In this document: piece by piece, positions 19,301 to 46,899 of the stretch
How the letters are laid out: each line of letters opens with the position of its first letter
Position numbering within the stretch: the first letter of the stretch is position 1
Origin: a virus
Virus genome (UHGV): UHGV-0112973
Length of the DNA: 64,000 bases
Direction: 5' to 3' (one strand)
The notes under the pieces: model-generated
What the model saw: the letters and a program-made list of their open reading frames with translations, nothing else
Databases searched by the model: none
What the model was told of the DNA's origin: nothing
Translations under genes and position numbers: made by a program

Positions 19301-19647
19301 GGTCTGAGTTTGTATGCGGTGATTTTGCAGCGGTGATTGAAGCTGCCGGAGAAGGAGATGTCATCTTTTGCGATCCGCCGTATGAACCGCTTCCAAATAC
19401 AGAGGGATTCACGAACTATTCCGGTCATGACTTTAAGTTTGAAGAGCAAAAACGCCTGGTGTCTCTGTTGACGGATGCTCATCGTCGAGGTGCAAAGGTT
19501 CTCATTACTAACAGTGGCGCGCCAAACATCAGAGAGCTTTATCATGACAGTGGCTTCAGAGTGGAACCTCTTTTTGCCAGACGTTCTGTGTCTTGTAAGG
19601 GGGACACTCGAGGTGTAGCTCATGACGTTTTAGGTATATTGCTCTAA
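16360..19647 (+). CDS. dmt: bifunctional DNA methyltransferase Dmt (N-terminal C5-cytosine MTase, C-terminal Dam-like N6-adenine MTase), interrupted in frame by an intein
   Basis: GTG start overlapping hrdC stop; C5 motifs (GGTP/CQAFS, ENVPG, QRRRRVF) and Dam motifs (FKWAGGK, DPPY); 1095 aa = 754 + 341. Confidence 0.9.
16591..17613 (+). other. intein (341 aa) with LAGLIDADG homing-endonuclease domain, inserted at the catalytic Cys of the PCQ motif
   Basis: Starts Cys (CFTAGHMV...), block [18 protein letters not shown] and [10 protein letters not shown] motifs, ends ...NGAVVHN followed by Cys; removal restores GGTPCQAFS. Confidence 0.85.
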
Positions 19648-19654
19648 TAAATTT
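19638..19654 (+). promoter_or_regulatory. C1 operator overlapping the dmt stop codon
   Basis: ATTGCTCTAATAAATTT exact to remembered consensus; part of palindrome CTAATAAATTTATTAG. Confidence 0.55.
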
Positions 19655-19828
19655 ATTAGTGTAATATCGCCTCAATGAATCGTGATTTATAGAGCGATTT
19701 AGCTGTTAGCCGCGACAGGCGCGGCGGTAAGCATGGCTGGGCCTAGTCCTCCCAGACAAACCACCGAGTTGCCAGGTTGACCATGCGCCTAAGTGGCAAC
19801 GCCGAAGTGCGTTACGAGCTTCCAGTTT

Positions 19829-19855
19829 GCCCATCTTCGGGTGGGCGTTTTTTTC
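19829..19855 (+). terminator. rho-independent terminator downstream of dmt
   Basis: gcccatc-UUCG-ggtgggc hairpin followed by T7 run. Confidence 0.6.
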
Positions 19856-20035
19856 AGGGTTTTCGTCATGGTTAGCGACTTTGCGGCGGTTTAGAAACTG
19901 ACCATTAAAGTAAATGCAAACGATGATCTGATGATGGTAGCGGCCTAAGAAGCCAGATGCCACGGGGTATGAGTCGTCCCCCGTCAAAAAATCGACCGCA
20001 GAGTGTCCCCGTCTGTGTATTAGGGAACGGGGAGG

Positions 20036-20118
20036 CACAACAGGTAAGGGCGCTGGTGTGATTAACCAGATGAACGAGAAGGGGCCATCTGTTGGTCAGC
20101 GTCCTTTCCTGTTGCGTT
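20036..20118 (+). repeat. long-stem hairpin element (unit 0) upstream of tRNA-Asn
   Basis: 5' arm CACAACAGGTAAGGGCGCTGG pairs with 3' arm CAGCGTCCTTTCCTGTTGCG. Confidence 0.45.
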
Positions 20119-20319
20119 TTCTTTTCAGCGTAACAGCGGTGCTTAACAGCACTTTGGGTACAGTTCCACGAATTTACGGGTATATCCCGTCATGCTGAAG
20201 GCGCTAATCACGCTGGAAGCCAGGGTTGTGCATCCCCTGTTACCGAATTGCAGCCAGGGCGCGGTGCGCCGAAAAGCATACGGAGGTGGAAGCCCTCGCC
20301 GGAGACGTACCCGGCAAGT

Positions 20320-20394
20320 GATGGTGTAGCTCAGCGGTAGAGCAGTTGGCTGTTAACCAACTGGTCGGTGGTTCGAATCCATCCACCATCGCCA
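20320..20394 (+). tRNA. tRNA-Asn (anticodon GTT)
   Basis: Cloverleaf by hand: acceptor GATGGTG/CACCATC, D-arm GCTC..GAGC, anticodon loop CTGTTAA, T-arm GGTGG-TTCGAAT-CCATC, encoded GCCA end. Confidence 0.9.
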
Positions 20395-20396
20395 AT

Positions 20397-20472
20397 GCCG
20401 GTTTAGCTCAGTTGGTAGAGCGCCTGCCTTGTAAGCAGGATGTCAGCGGTTCGAGTCCGTTAACCGGCACCA
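20397..20472 (+). tRNA. tRNA-Thr (anticodon TGT)
   Basis: Acceptor GCCGGTT/AACCGGC, anticodon loop CTTGTAA, T-loop TTCGAGT, encoded CCA. Confidence 0.9.
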
Positions 20473-20473
20473 A

Positions 20474-21262
20474 CACAACAGGTAAGGGTATTTTGCGACG
20501 TCGGAGATCGCCGTGCTTGGCAGAGGGTTCGAATCCCTACGAAGTACCCTTACCGTTGTGATGAATGCGCAGGCTGATGCGCGAAAGACATTGCAGCTAT
20601 TGCGGAAAAGAGCTGTTCGGCGGGGCAATTAAACGCCCGTGAGAGTCTGAAATAACCGCAAGCCGGAGATCAGCACCGGTCATCACAACACAACAGGTAA
20701 GGGCATTCTCCCTTATGGGGCTTGGCTTAAATGCATCGAGTGCTCTTACCGTTGTGATGAAGTGCAGCTCTTTGAAGCAACCAGAAGATAAGCATCTGGC
20801 TTCACAACATAAACCGCAGGAACGACCAATAAACGGTAGTCCGTATGGAGAACACCCCGTTGAGGAAGAGGCCTGGCCGGAACCGTAACCGGCACTATAA
20901 CGTTGAGAACACTGGCGTAACGGGGTCATATCCCAATCTACGAATAAATGTTGCGTTGCAGCGTGACAACCAGTGTTCTCAACATTGTGGTGAATGCACA
21001 GGCTGATGTGCCGCAACTACAGTAGTGCGCGCTTTGCGGGGCTTGCTACAACCCTGTGTCGGAGTTCAGCACCGACCATCACAGTTTGATTCTCTGGCAT
21101 GAGCATAACGCTGAAATAAGTCCAGTCTGGTGCGGTCTGATCACCCGCCGTTAGCTCCACGAAACGGAGCACGTAACAGGTAAGAGCATTCTCCTGTAAC
21201 GGGTTCATATCCCAATCTACAGGTCCACCAAGAATGCTCTTTCCGTTGCGGTGAATGCGGCT
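20474..21262 (+). repeat. four related long-stem hairpin units (candidate structured RNAs or processing elements) between tRNA-Thr and upl
   Basis: Units at about 20474-20565, 20688-20775, 20901-20995, 21172-21262; shared arms ACAACAGGTAAG(G/A)G / CTTACCGTTGTG, 14-bp perfect stem GTTGAGAACACTGG/CCAGTGTTCTCAAC, T-loop-like GGGTTCGAATCCC. Confidence 0.5.
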
Positions 21263-21400
21263 AAGCGCACGCGGGGAAATGGTTATATCAGTCCATTCAT
21301 TTCTCCTTGTTTCCCCGTCCACGGTGGATAACCAGCCAAAGGACACCGGGAGGCACCCGGCACCGCAGCTTTTTTATTCGTTAAATAATGGAGTGAGAGG

Positions 21401-21637
21401 ATGCAGAACAATCCGAACAAATGTCGAACGCTATGGGTGCGGTTATATATTTATGCCGTCCTCTGTTTGATTGTGTCACTGGTTCTGTATGTTTGGCTTT
21501 TGCCAAATATGATCTCATCTAACAGCACAATACTTGTATTGTTGGGAGTCCTTCTCGCGCTCATTTACCCAGCTTTCGCAGTAGTCTTTTTTCGTGAAAA
21601 AACCAGGAAATTAATTAATGAAAAAAACGTTGATTAG
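21401..21637 (+). CDS. small membrane protein upstream of plp (upl position)
   Basis: 78 aa with two hydrophobic helices; GAGAGG RBS; overlaps plp start. Confidence 0.5.
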   Translation: MQNNPNKCRTLWVRLYIYAVLCLIVSLVLYVWLLPNMISSNSTILVLLGVLLALIYPAFAVVFFREKTRKLINEKNVD

Positions 21638-22445
21638 TGCAGCGATTATTTTGGGTTCTTTATGTCTGACCGGATGCGATCGGGTAGAGCCAGGTAACGT
21701 AGGGATCAAAGTAAATAAGCTGGGGGATGATAAAGGTATCGGTGAAGTAGTTGGCGTTGGTCGCTACTGGACAGGCTTGAATACTGAAGTTTACATCTTC
21801 CCGACCTTTAAGCAAATGAAGACATACGATGAGCCGTTCAGCTTCCAGATGAGCGACGGAACAACCATTGGTTACCACATCGGCGTAGCCTACAAGGTTG
21901 ATCCAGCAAAAGTCACAACGGTATTTCAGACCTATCGCAAAGGTGTAGATGATATTACTGATACCGATCTACGCCAGAAGGTTGCAGATGCTCTGAACCG
22001 GTTAGCCAGCAAAATGACAACCGACAAATTTATCGACGGTGGCAAATCCGAATTGCTTGATGCAGCCCTTAAAGACATTCAGGAAGAAATGACGCCAATC
22101 GGCATTCAGGTGATGAGCCTCTCTTATGTAGGTAAGCCAGAATACCCGCCAACAGTTATTGACAGTATTAACGCCAAAGTCACGGCAAACCAAAAAACCC
22201 TGCAACGCGAGCAAGAGGTCAAACAACGTGAAGCAGAGGCCAACATGCTGCGCGCGGAAGCTGCCGGACAGGCTGATGCTATTCGCACAAAAGCCCAGGC
22301 CGAAGCTGATGCCATTCGTTTACGTGGTGAAGCTCTGCGCCAGAACCCCGGTGTTATGGAGTTGGAAGCGATCAACAAATGGAACGGTACATTACCGCAG
22401 TATATGACCAGTAATACCGCTGTTCCGTTTGTTCCGGTGAAATAA
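21618..22445 (+). CDS. plp: SPFH/band-7 (prohibitin-like) lipoprotein
   Basis: 275 aa; lipobox LTGC after signal peptide; SPFH-like core and coiled-coil C-terminus; position as P1 plp. Confidence 0.7.
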   Translation: MKKTLISAAIILGSLCLTGCDRVEPGNVGIKVNKLGDDKGIGEVVGVGRYWTGLNTEVYIFPTFKQMKTYDEPFSFQMSDGTTIGYHIGVAYKVDPAKVTTVFQTYRKGVDDITDTDLRQKVADALNRLASKMTTDKFIDGGKSELLDAALKDIQEEMTPIGIQVMSLSYVGKPEYPPTVIDSINAKVTANQKTLQREQEVKQREAEANMLRAEAAGQADAIRTKAQAEADAIRLRGEALRQNPGVMELEAINKWNGTLPQYMTSNTAVPFVPVK

Positions 22446-22472
22446 AAGCGTAAGCAAAATTGGCAGTAATCC

Positions 22473-22548
22473 GGCCCTTTAGCTCAGTGGTTAGAGCTGG
22501 CGACTCATAATCGCACGGTCACCGGTTCAAGTCCGGTAGGGGCCACCA
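22473..22548 (+). tRNA. tRNA-Ile (anticodon CAT, lysidine-type; resembles E. coli ileX)
   Basis: GGCCCTTTAGCTCAGTGGTTAGAGC...CTCATAA...GGTTCAAGTCC...GGGGCCACCA. Confidence 0.85.
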
Positions 22549-22833
22549 TATTTGGTTGTAACACGGCGTCTGGCACATGCGTCGTTAGCGGTCTGGTGAC
22601 GTTAAAGGGGTTACCTTTTCCCCTAGCTCAGGCAACAAACCAGGTAGCCGAAATGTGCAAGTCACCGTTGGAGGGATAGCGGATACAGGGACTCACCATC
22701 CTGGCGATTCGGTGTGACAGCCGGGAAGAGTCCGGCGCATTAATCCTGATTTTCTGGTGATGACTCATATCGTTAGGAGTGATTTGAGTATGCCGATTAT
22801 ATCTGACATTCAGCACGCCTGGGTGGAGTGCTA

Positions 22834-24198
22834 ATGTCTGCATCCCCTCTTGAATCCATGCCAAATTCCCTTAGTGCAGAACAAGCTGTACTTGGTGGCT
22901 TAATGCTTGATAACTGCCGCTGGGATGAAGTTGCAGATCGTATAGTTGCTGATGATTTTTATACCAGTGCTCATCGTGAAATTTTCAGTGAGATGGAGAG
23001 GTTATTAAGTCATGGCAAACCGATTGATTTGATAACACTTGCTGAAGCACTTGAACAGAACGGTAAATTAGAACGCGCCGGTGGTTTTGCGTACCTTGCG
23101 GAGATGTCAAAGAACACGCCCAGCGCGGCAAATATTTGTGCTTATGCGGATATCGTTCGTGAACGCGCGGTTGTTCGTGAAATGATTTCCGTCGCAAATG
23201 AAATAGCTGAAGCTGGATATGCGCAGGATGGCAGGGGCAGCAATGAATTGCTGGATATGGCCGAGCGCCGCGTTTTTGAAATAGCTGAAAAACGACAAAA
23301 GAGCGGTAGTGGTCCAAAAGATATCGCCAGCATTCTCGATGCAACGGTATCTCGCATAGAAGAGTTGTTTCAGCGACCGCATGATGGTGTAACGGGGCTT
23401 GATACCGGATTTACCGATCTCAATAAGAAGACGGCAGGACTTCAGGCGTCCGATCTCATTATTGTCGCCGCCCGCCCATCGATGGGGAAGACTACGTTTG
23501 CGATGAATCTCGTCGAAAATGCCGCAGTCCGTAACGATAAGCCCGTATTGGTTTTTAGCCTTGAGATGCCGAGCCACCAGCTGATGATGCGCTCACTGGC
23601 TTCTCTTGCACGCGTTGATCAGACTCGTATTCGAACAGGGCAACTTAACGACGAGGATTGGGCGCGGGTTTCTGGCGCAATGGGGATTCTGTTGGACAAG
23701 CAGAATATTTTTATTGATGACTCAAGCGCCCTGACACCTACAGAGCTTCGTTCCCGCGCTCGTCGTGTTTATAAAGAAAATGGTGGTTTGAGCATGATTA
23801 TGATCGACTACCTGCAACTTATGCGCGTCCCCGAGCTGCAAGATAACCGAACGCTGGAAATTGCCGAGATTTCTCGCTCACTGAAGGCTTTGGCGAAGGA
23901 ATTACAAGTACCGGTGGTGGCATTGTCACAACTTAATCGATCGCTTGAACAGCGTGCGGACAAACGACCGGTAAATTCAGATTTACGTGAATCAGGAGCA
24001 ATTGAGCAGGACGCAGACCTGATCATGTTTCTGTATCGCGACGAAGTTTATCACCCGGATAGCGAAATGAAGGGCATTGCCGAGGTAATTATCGGAAAGC
24101 AACGAAATGGCCCAATTGGCACGGTGAGATTGGCTTTTAACGGCCAATACTCACGGTTTGATAACTATGCTGGTGCTGACTGGCAAGAGGATTATTAA
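22834..24198 (+). CDS. ban: DnaB-like replicative helicase Ban
   Basis: 454 aa from ATG with GGAG RBS; DnaB family motifs (AEQAVLGGLMLDN, GKTTFAMN Walker A). Confidence 0.93.
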   Translation: MSASPLESMPNSLSAEQAVLGGLMLDNCRWDEVADRIVADDFYTSAHREIFSEMERLLSHGKPIDLITLAEALEQNGKLERAGGFAYLAEMSKNTPSAANICAYADIVRERAVVREMISVANEIAEAGYAQDGRGSNELLDMAERRVFEIAEKRQKSGSGPKDIASILDATVSRIEELFQRPHDGVTGLDTGFTDLNKKTAGLQASDLIIVAARPSMGKTTFAMNLVENAAVRNDKPVLVFSLEMPSHQLMMRSLASLARVDQTRIRTGQLNDEDWARVSGAMGILLDKQNIFIDDSSALTPTELRSRARRVYKENGGLSMIMIDYLQLMRVPELQDNRTLEIAEISRSLKALAKELQVPVVALSQLNRSLEQRADKRPVNSDLRESGAIEQDADLIMFLYRDEVYHPDSEMKGIAEVIIGKQRNGPIGTVRLAFNGQYSRFDNYAGADWQEDY

Positions 24199-46580: not shown

Positions 46581-46899
46581 GTGTTTTTTAGCTACCGATG
46601 TTACATTGAACCTGACCTCTTGCGCCTTGTGGCATTTTCGGTTTATGCTTATCAGGCACCTCATTAAAACGGGTGCCGGGATTGGCCTCCCGCTTAAGTC
46701 TAAGGCGATACAGACGCCGCTCGCGTCTTTTTTTGTATCGGCGTACACGCACACCTCTACAATGGTGGGCTGTATGGGGCTACCTTCGGGTAGGCTGGTT
46801 ACCTTGGACGCCAGTAAGGCCAACTCCGTACAGTCCACCGCCAGCAAGATTGGTCTCTTCTGCGGTGGTTACATACCAACGTCTAAGGAGGCTGCCAAT

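Follow-up and report, generated by a model that had tools for sequence, protein, structure and literature searches.

A family of conserved RNA hairpins in the tRNA-bearing, non-coding ban leader of a P1-like phage

YrlA, a bacterial Y RNA, and the species 1 and 2 RNAs of phage T4 are non-coding RNAs that mimic tRNA, those of T4 being co-transcribed with tRNAs. The early transcripts of T7 are punctuated by RNase III and, in lambda, an RNase III hairpin occupies the N leader ahead of the early-left genes. Among prophage small RNAs (sRNAs), STnc100 and PasD have been linked (bioRxiv 10.64898/2026.05.13.724894), and DicF of the E. coli K-12 Qin prophage is generated through RNase III as well as RNase E processing plus termination (Faubladier et al. 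1990, listed in PMC12197685). Regarding transfer-messenger RNA (tmRNA), a variant lacking a coding sequence (CDS) in mycobacteriophage DS6A interferes with the tmRNA of the host (PMC11915505). The locus considered here, at positions 20036 to 21262 of UHGV virus genome UHGV-0112973 (the whole stretch analysed, 64,000 nt, is termed the window), is an array of five long hairpins, designated A1 to A5, which an earlier note had recorded as a family of long-stem elements flanking the tRNA-Asn and tRNA-Thr genes. The phage is P1-like, and the array lies in the non-coding leader (~1.7 kb) of its ban operon, which C1 represses, on the strand (+) of the tRNAs and ban. These hairpins are real, strand-specific and homologous RNA structures; A4 and A5 belong to a strongly covarying family, and several phage families use the scaffold to carry different cargo.

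Each of the five units, which stand where the earlier note had placed them, folds as a long imperfect RNA hairpin with a minimum free energy of -34.5 to -47.3 kcal/mol. Relative to shuffled sequences, none of which was as stable (0/200), the z-scores are -5.39 for A1 (20036-20116), -5.39 for A2 (20474-20562), -6.04 for A3 (20689-20758), -7.39 for A4 (20893-20992) and -6.36 for A5 (21170-21254). For every unit the fold of the plus strand beats that of the minus strand by 4-11 kcal/mol, which, for structures lying in a tRNA-containing transcription unit, upholds the interpretation of the region at the RNA level. The earlier note had proposed stable small RNAs, structures for RNase III/E processing in a tRNA operon, or tRNA-derived elements in a degenerate state, and this interpretation is supported in part. 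The basal stem counts ~17 pairs in A1, 25 in A2 (with one bulged A), 19 in A3 (with a bulged A and a short cargo), 22 in A4 and 21 in A5, each with 1-2 single-base interruptions, and the stems have the length of an RNase III substrate, i.e. a largely uninterrupted duplex of about two turns (~20 bp or more).

The conserved 5' arm and complementary 3' arm are likewise real, with four copies each. The former, CACAACAGGTAAGGGC, is found in A1, A2, A3 and A5 with 81-100% identity, and the latter with its flank, CTTACCGTTGTGATGAATGC..., in A2 to A5, A4 being diverged in arm sequence with its architecture kept, including the perfect 14-bp pairing GTTGAGAACACTGG/CCAGTGTTCTCAAC already noticed in one unit. 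The resulting A-type scaffold (repeat families D1, D3 and D4), in which G(A/G)UGAAU comes after the arms CACAACAGGUAAGRGC / GCUCUUWCCGUUGUG, is also present in lambdoid, T1-like and Aeromonas phages, a wider family that had escaped the earlier note, and in Ro157c2 a G.U to A-U change in A3 retains the pair. The short G+C hairpin said to follow each unit was recorded after A2 (GCGCAGGCTGATGCGC), A4 (GCACAGGCTGATGTGC) and A5 (GCGGCTAAGCGC), and GCACAGGCTGATGTGC exhibits a compensatory G-C to A-U change. With an E-value up to 10, no known RNA family of Rfam is found on the hairpins, neither ARAGORN nor the Rfam model RF00005 calls a tRNA on A1 to A5, and the YrlA model (RF02553) leaves the hairpins unmatched, its single match of 22.1 bits covering the genuine tRNAs; weak matches to microRNA precursors in Rfam were dismissed as they reflect hairpin shape only. 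True matches are confined to phage, prophage or phage-plasmid contexts, and the units are not remnants of an insertion sequence (IS), of repetitive extragenic palindromic (REP) elements or of another host repeat.

In A4 and A5 the cargo forms a three-way junction, an element for which Rfam holds no family. A covariance model (R1) built from 12 lambdoid prophage sequences only, i.e. with no P1-type sequence in it, matches A5 with 45.4 bits (E 2e-13) and A4 with 35.5 bits (E 9e-10) in the window, these E-values being rough for a home-made model, and leaves A1 to A3 unmatched on the sense strand. The architecture of the family consists of a P1 helix of 24-28 bp, a P2 helix carrying GACGGGCUCAUAACCCAAUCC, i.e. 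a GGG-YUCAUNN-CCC hairpin with an AC/AAUC internal loop, and a variable P3. In A4, P2 is ACGGGGUCAUAUCCCAAUC (20920-20938) and P3 (about 20948-20968) has a UUGCAG loop; in A5, P2 is ACGGGUUCAUAUCCCAAUC (21199-21217) and P3 has shrunk to UCCACCA. The latter sequence, following P2, brought to mind an RNase P minihelix with CCA, which was rejected as it is not conserved in the family. Besides, A4 and A5 have a 25-nt cargo repeat in common, GTAACGGG(G/T)TCATATCCCAATCTAC.

The core of this cargo occurs in at least 120 IMG/VR contigs. Across 67 distinct members, 97.9% of the alignment cells are paired and both sides change in 19 of the 32 pairs, values that none of 500 shuffles reaches, with slid partners giving 39-56% paired. 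A separate count on 63 members agrees and finds many G.U pairs and few A.C pairs, which points to an RNA on the plus strand. The upper stem, AAG.GCA/UGC.CUU, is invariant across members. As the first retrieval of members demanded the core sequence, part of the invariance seen in the core follows from this selection, a bias that a stem-anchored retrieval and a model-based genome scan lessen without removing it. Members retrieved by their stem keep YUCAU in the loop, and the next two bases vary (AA, UC, UA, AU); the loose stem-anchored pattern scan of IMG/VR yielded mostly noise and was used for 13 true core variants only. In species-representative genomes, the members confirmed by R1 are restricted to Enterobacterales; for the genome-wide core pattern, ~140 matches are expected by chance, and other phyla remain at the chance number. 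A copy of the mEp460 type, unannotated, is found in 2492 of 5426 complete E. coli genomes (46%), and the P1-type array in 1033 plasmid records.

In the lambdoid phages mEp460, SfV and ST64B, the order is cI, a terminator, an A-type hairpin, an STnc100-type module with its terminator, and the three-way junction, followed by a small hairpin whose loop is U(U/G)GCAG and whose stem covaries, and next by the first early-left ORF. This first ORF differs among contigs (yfdP-like, rdgC-like, small membrane or holin-like proteins), so the three-way-junction element is not tied to one gene. Of note, the U(U/G)GCAG hexaloop hairpin (L002 2795-2812 and homologs) has a self-complementary loop that recurs in P3, including that of A4 (window about 20950-20966), and could possibly be a loop-loop contact or a protein site; kissing of the P3 loop with the downstream UUGCAG hairpin was considered and abandoned, the motif recurring with no clean covariation found. 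ST64B carries its R1 element downstream of cI, in the same area as the non-coding RNA STnc1310, which lies downstream of cI and is strongly expressed on induction (PMC7067206). The CPS-53 prophage of K-12 was discarded as a tractable copy, the element being deleted there.

Parts of tRNA can be recognized in three of the five units. The core CGGGCUCAUAACCC is identical over 14 nt to the anticodon arm of the initiator tRNA, namely positions 28-41 of E. coli metZ, which reads ...GTCGGGCTCATAACCCGAAGG...; the lambdoid core matches CGGGCTCATAACCC exactly, that is the three G-C pairs typical of initiator tRNA and a CUCAUAA loop, and the P1-type copies read GGG-UUCAUAU-CCC. The T-loop-like sequences of the earlier note hold for A2 (GGGTTCGAATCCC, 20524-20536), the cargo of which displays a canonical T-arm, AGGGTTCGAATCCCT (20524-20538), and not elsewhere, A4 (GGGGTCATATCCC) and A5 (GGGTTCATATCCC) being anticodon-loop-like (CAU). 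Further A-type hairpins from prophages and T1-like phages have one or two hairpins with UUCGAAU, UUCGACU or UUCAAUC loops, and the T-arm cargo of the A2 type adjoins a tmRNA-like tag element (see below) in the T1-like contigs L386 and L397. A mimic of the tRNA-His anticodon in the A1 cargo loop (GGUGUGAUUAA), suggested by UGUGAUU, was rejected, the loop being of 9 nt and the motif common to a hairpin of the tag element. The designation of degenerate tRNA-derived elements is apt regarding the tRNA-like parts of A2, A4 and A5 and is unsupported regarding decay, since across Enterobacterales prophages the A4/A5 type experiences strong selection, both purifying and compensatory.

Rather than standing free, the hairpins alternate with larger modules. 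The sequence 3' of the hairpins (GUGAUGAAUGC... or GUGGUGAAUGC...) finds a pairing partner, UCAUCAC or CACCGCA, 60-130 nt downstream and thereby closes the multi-hairpin modules B2, B4 and B5 by helices of the GUGAUGA/UCAUCAC type, an alternation that the earlier note had not described. Module B1 (20117-20319, +) ends, by inspection of the sequence, in a small hairpin, GCCGGAGACGTACCCGGC and CAAGT, directly before tRNA-Asn, a terminal motif that recurs in B2, B4, B5 and the STnc100 consensus. Module B2 (20556-20690, +), identified by similarity and folding, has UUGUGAUGA/UCAUCACAA as closing helix and is 96% identical to an STnc100-type module that the lambdoid phage mEp460 has downstream of cI; in the lambdoid contig L011, the stretch homologous to B2 scores as a full-length STnc100 (49.1 bits) and adjoins an R1 element. 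The short module B3 with its spacer (20752-20892, +; inspection, repeat family D2) ends in the small hairpin GGCCGGAACCGTAACCGGC and CAC. By folding, B4 (20986-21083) extends with its spacer over 20986-21171 (+) to the final hairpin GCTCCACGAAACGGAGC and ACG; in the T1-like contig L386, too, an A hairpin has the same CUCCACGAAACGGAG hairpin ahead of it. More generally, a small hairpin CCGG-N8-10-CCGG followed by CAC stands before every tRNA and every A hairpin. Finally, B5 (21247-21380, +), with a UGCGGUG/CACCGCA closure (21247-21367) and then a U-run, matches the STnc100 model of Rfam (RF02076) with 37.8 bits (E 3.4e-6, model positions 31-147), below the gathering score of 47, and the match does not cover the hairpins. 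The full-length STnc100 model itself begins ~30 nt inside the 3' side of the preceding A-type hairpin, which fits processing within the hairpin. An unannotated B5/STnc100-like module (GTGGTGAATGCGGCTGAGCGCACGCGG ... CACCTGGAGGCACCAGGCAC) was also encountered between dicF and dicB in the Qin prophage (L366 2955-3085), which provides a tractable copy inside K-12.

At the level of the whole locus, positions 19650-21400 of the window are 99% identical to phage RCS47 and 98-99% to P1, and an E. coli phage-plasmid carries this stretch at 100% identity. In the P1 record, the corresponding interval sits between dmt and ban and comprises the P1ban/P2ban promoters, a bivalent C1 operator, a 'dicF-like region', trnA (Asn) and trnT (Thr). 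By P1 annotation (L001 1473-1518, 98.7% identity), P1ban/P2ban and the operator (Op72) lie at 19622-19667 (+), from where they would drive and repress the whole unit; a strict sigma-70 scan of 19550-22900 found no other promoter, and none internal to the array. Downstream come the 'dicF-like region' with an intrinsic terminator (19720-19856, +; P1 misc_feature), a scan for terminators giving one clear case at 19828-19856 (stem 19828-19847, then a T-run), the tag element, A1, B1, tRNA-Asn(GUU) at 20320-20394 and tRNA-Thr(UGU) at 20397-20472 (both +), A2, B2, A3, B3, A4, B4, A5 and B5 with its U-run. The two flanking tRNAs are confirmed by ARAGORN and by Rfam (73.9 and 74.9 bits). The stretch 19720-19856 has a homolog in Qin, namely the structured region 5' of dicF (L366 2760-2870); the P1 'dicF-like region' has its own terminator at its end in place of DicF and holds a long-range GGUAAG...CUUAAG pairing that recalls the A-type arms.

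A coding explanation of the array was rejected, in line with the earlier view that no convincing protein ORF spans it. On both strands, the ORFs overlapping the region have no match in Pfam, and the unit indels of close relatives, with lengths that are not multiples of three, disrupt the plus-strand ORFs as well as those of the minus strand, namely the P1 genes plp ('putative lipoprotein') and upl, opposite to the array at 20597-21346 (-). Since they combine the lack of a Pfam match with these indels, plp and upl are probably not genes. A search of the literature found nothing on the core sequences, the tag peptides or RNAs of the P1 ban leader.

The same interval is present in P1 and its relatives, and P1, P7, D6, SJ46 and Ro157c2 differ from the window by gain, loss and fusion of whole units, with breakpoints falling within the conserved arms or the 25-nt cargo repeat. 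P1 is without 20566-20738; A4 and A5 are fused via the 25-nt repeat in SJ46; Ro157c2 is without A2 and B2, has an extra tRNA-Tyr and has lost from its A5 the anticodon-like hairpin alone. D6 and P7 harbor an additional A-type hairpin and a Ser/Sec-like tRNA; the latter (D6, L004 2006-2093; P7, L005 2173-2260), called Ser(UGA) by ARAGORN and scoring 43-47 bits on the selenocysteine-tRNA model of Rfam, fills a slot of the array where other phages have an A hairpin. In T1-like and Aeromonas phages the same scaffold separates the tag element, B modules and tRNAs, and in virulent T1-like phages it is found between structural genes.

Directly upstream of A1, between the terminator and the array, stands a tmRNA-like element of 179 nt (19857-20035, +), a further addition to the earlier note, identified from sub-threshold Rfam matches, homologs and covariation. 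It contains a tag frame, GCA...GCC (19916-19945), encoding ANDDLMMVAA and followed by a stop (19946-19948), an H-type pseudoknot after the stop (~19962-19996), and a hairpin at 20006-20033 with the loop CUGUGUAUUAGGGA (GUGUGAUUAAUAA). As in a tmRNA, the frame has no start codon, resumes at GCA, and ends with hydrophobic residues, AA and the stop. In the window, RF04321 (tmRNA_permuted) gives 24.1 bits and RF01850 14.1 bits, and four other phages likewise give sub-threshold matches, the tmRNA families of Rfam scoring 11-33 bits vs. gathering scores of 47-84. ARAGORN calls no tmRNA at the element, and neither an alanine-type acceptor stem (G3:U70) nor a 3' CCA was found in its sequence. Homologs with 70-85% identity, in no case annotated and usually close to tRNA genes, occur in 265 phage records that belong to unrelated types, the element being common to P1-, T1-, Vi1-, G7C-like and Aeromonas phages (e.g. 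L367 1475-1662, L368 1485-1650, L369 1488-1658 and L370 1490-1660). Their alignment displays a conserved 5' part, then GCA AAC GAU GAU ... GCC UAA. All 42 distinct variants have 10 codons plus a stop and no in-frame start codon (e.g. ANDDLMMVAA, ANDDVVLMAA, ANEEMYLAVA and ANDEQFLAVA); the 20 DNA versions of the tag differ mainly at synonymous sites, with up to 5 DNAs per peptide, a pattern of substitution indicating that the frame is under coding selection. Both stems of the pseudoknot covary, with core pairs canonical in 42/42 variants and two to four pair types each.

In most of the 42 variants the element has an A-type hairpin after it, and in T1-like and Aeromonas phages too the place of A1 is occupied by such a hairpin. 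In T1-like contigs, A-type hairpins with arms of the window type, often A2-type T-arm hairpins, stand before or after the element, B modules and tRNAs come next, and all are bounded by terminators; in L397, L377 and L378 the basal stem is joined in reverse order via a tetraloop. This recurrence beside the element across phage types makes A1 part of a composite conserved across phage families. As a separate observation, two odd tRNA-like genes flank the tag element of phage Bp4 (L367 1310-1381 and 1673-1751), called Ala(CGC) and Cys(ACA) by ARAGORN, the second having an acceptor stem with U3.G70 and G4.U69; as candidates, they might provide a separate tRNA-like partner.

Considering these results together, the hairpins are read, with a probability of roughly 0.45, as processing and scaffold hairpins of a polycistronic tRNA/sRNA precursor, probably RNase III substrates, which display mimics of tRNA parts. 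Each hairpin consists of a basal duplex of 17-25 bp (consensus CACAACAGGUAAGRGCA ... UGCUCUUWCCGUUGUG) holding a variable apical cargo. The plus strand would be synthesized, with read-through of the terminator, as one long untranslated precursor from the C1-repressed ban promoter, which would also hold the dicF-like RNA, the tmRNA-like tag element, tRNA-Asn, tRNA-Thr and five STnc100-like modules. The stems would act as punctuation, being long enough for a double-strand-specific nuclease, most likely the RNase III of the host, and the cuts would set apart the adjoining tRNAs and STnc100-like RNAs, with the cargo freed or stabilised as small stem-loop RNAs. In A4 and A5 this cargo is the conserved three-way junction, which shows the anticodon arm of the initiator tRNA as a copy (three G-C pairs, loop YUCAU), and in A2 it shows a T-arm; these mini-domains would most likely bind a factor that normally recognises tRNA. 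Such processing fits the precedent of DicF. Several points weigh against this proposal. RNase III cutting of A1 to A5 is predicted from stem length alone, and read-through must be assumed because the strong terminator at 19828-19856 separates the promoter from the array. Punctuation is apparently not the whole story, as the cargo and upper stem of A4/A5 are conserved beyond the needs of processing sites. Besides, strict tRNA mimicry is not maintained, given the variation at loop positions 37-38, inspection of the cargo of A1 and A3 revealed no convincing tRNA-like part, and the tRNA-recognising partner of the cargo is putative.

The occurrence of the three-way-junction core on a different, shorter basal stem (L008, L026 and L320) argues that the core is the functional part, and would suit a rather unlikely scenario in which the released mimics are trans-acting decoys that bind and block host enzymes attacking or using tRNAs, the long stem merely presenting and protecting them. 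A target could be an anticodon nuclease specific for tRNA-fMet, e.g. the enteric VapC/MvpT, the VapC of Shigella and Salmonella being one that cleaves the tRNA-fMet anticodon arm, and the outcome would be a counter-defence complementing the phage tRNA genes. The 14-nt identity to the tRNA-fMet anticodon arm with its invariant GGG/CCC and YUCAU speaks for such decoys, as do the very high prevalence in E. coli genomes (2492/5426) and the co-location with phage tRNA genes, including Asn and, in Ro157c2, Tyr, the host counterparts of which are known nuclease targets. However, the partner is only putative, positions 37-38, including the reported VapC cleavage site, vary, A1 and A3 are without a recognisable mimic, and the element is fixed in operon 5' leaders right after terminators, which looks cis-acting. 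Less probable still is that the hairpins are structural domains of a multi-part, phage tmRNA-like system rather than independent RNAs, with 19857-20035 as the mRNA-like domain and an A2-type T-arm hairpin or a tRNA-shaped B module as the tRNA-like domain. The constant tag frame of 10 codons and a stop with no in-frame start, encoded by up to 5 DNAs per peptide, the covarying pseudoknot placed after the stop codon as in tmRNA, and the repetition of sub-threshold matches in four unrelated phages favour it, together with the A-type hairpin after the element in most variants, the adjacency of the A2 type in L386 and L397, and the reversed stem order of L397, L377 and L378, which resembles that of circularly permuted tmRNA genes. 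It has to contend with the negative ARAGORN result at the element and with the G3:U70 acceptor stem and 3' CCA, neither of which was found; moreover, in the window, A1, B1 and two tRNAs separate A2 from the tag element, and A3 to A5 are left with no obvious role.

The position of the elements near terminators at operon heads, ahead of first genes that are unrelated (yfdP-like, rdgC-like, holin-like), could also be explained by cis-acting transcription elements, namely nut/put-like or anti-Rho structures made of the hairpin, GGWGAA and the small hairpin, by which polymerase would read through terminators and the untranslated leader to ban or to the lambdoid early-left genes. The 3' arm UGCUCUU(A/U)C resembles the boxA consensus, and ~20 nt later comes a small hairpin, the U(U/G)GCAG loop of which is conserved and the stem of which covaries in lambdoid copies. 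This is improbable, as the boxA-like strand is buried in the stem and pairing is conserved rather than sequence (UGUUCUU and UACCCUU variants), for which the boxA/nut reading of the 3' arm was rejected. In addition, the copies in lambdoid phages are situated downstream of the STnc100 terminator instead of upstream, the same scaffold is found in virulent T1-like phages between structural genes, and no similarity to HK022 put exists, the immunity region of HK022 having no R1 match at E up to 10 and the leader sequence being unrelated to putL/putR. Turning to the breakpoints of unit gain and loss in repeated arms, they would be expected from non-functional relics, i.e. pseudo-tRNAs or recombination scars retained only for flanking mobile cassettes (or, as a variant, hairpins acting at the DNA level), and the fact that ARAGORN and the Rfam tRNA model recognise no hairpin as a tRNA would agree. 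This view is very improbable and largely refuted by covariation, with compensatory changes in 19/32 pairs and invariant core nucleotides across many genera; the G.U-rich stems, more stable on one strand, and the conservation of the scaffold in unrelated phage families also speak against relics.

Should the reading as processing and scaffold hairpins be true, DNA that is very common in E. coli prophages and phage-plasmids (46% of complete genomes, ~1000 P1-like plasmids), and for which current annotation gives nothing or else dubious ORFs (plp and upl, for instance), would be a set of structured RNAs and not coding sequence. STnc100-type sRNAs would be placed in a defined precursor architecture, which bears on their biogenesis. 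The exact copy of the initiator anticodon arm on a rigid scaffold suggests that phages may carry RNA decoys, beside their own tRNAs, against enzymes that read or cut tRNA. In P1, T1-like and Vi1-like phages, the tag element would give a first hint of tmRNA-like function and would make trans-translation a phage-host battleground. More speculatively, and with considerable doubt, P1-like, lambdoid, T1-like, Vi1-like and G7C-like phages would share a modular island of translation-RNA mimics, which may combine scaffold hairpins with tRNA parts, tRNA-shaped STnc100-like modules and a previously unrecognised tmRNA-like tag RNA; after processing, it could serve as a trans-translation or tRNA-decoy system tagging, rescuing or blocking host ribosomes or tRNA-targeting defences.

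Further downstream in the window, a third tRNA, with a CAU anticodon, is called by ARAGORN and Rfam at 22473-22548. Between the RNA array on one side and this tRNA and ban on the other, genes for a small protein (78 aa) and an SPFH/Band 7 protein (275 aa; PF01145, E 1e-30) at 21401-22445 (+) replace the tciA/B/C of P1. At 46656-46845 (+), an isrK-like RNA (60.8 bits) lies directly upstream of the C4 antisense RNA (75.9 bits), a known pair of the P1 immunity region that is also found in lambdoid contigs bearing the hairpin family.

Compared with known systems, the hairpins are like YrlA and the T4 species 1 and 2 RNAs in that their two ends form a long stem topped by a tRNA-like apical domain (the T-arm of A2), and they would, as in T4, be co-transcribed with tRNAs, whereas A4 and A5, unlike YrlA, mimic the anticodon arm and not the acceptor/T/D part, and no Ro (Rsr) partner is known in E. 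coli K-12. With tmRNA, including the two-piece (permuted) type, the tag element shares the resume context AUAAAU GCA AAC GA, a tag of the ANDD...AA type and a downstream pseudoknot, but its matches to the models are sub-threshold, ARAGORN is negative, and no alanine-type acceptor stem or CCA was found. As for RNase III punctuation in the T7 early region and the lambda N leader, the resemblance lies in long imperfect hairpins between units of early transcripts, the element of the lambdoid relatives standing 40-50 nt upstream of the first early-left ORF, that is in the position of the lambda N-leader hairpin; in contrast, no sequence relation to these sites was found and the cargo of A4/A5 is conserved far beyond the needs of a cleavage site. 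The dicB operon of Qin likewise yields small RNAs from the untranslated part of a repressor-controlled prophage operon, and the kinship extends to the window's counterpart of the region 5' of dicF and to the B5-like module between dicF and dicB in Qin; the dicF locus has no A-type hairpin, though, and RNase III cleavage is putative for A1 to A5. Regarding STnc100 and PasD, RF02076 covers only ~30 nt of the hairpin at its 5' end, B5 is sub-threshold, and the papers found describe no array of five tandem units in each of which the hairpin is a conserved component; yet the modules between the hairpins are homologous to them, and the STnc100 model begins inside the preceding A-type hairpin.

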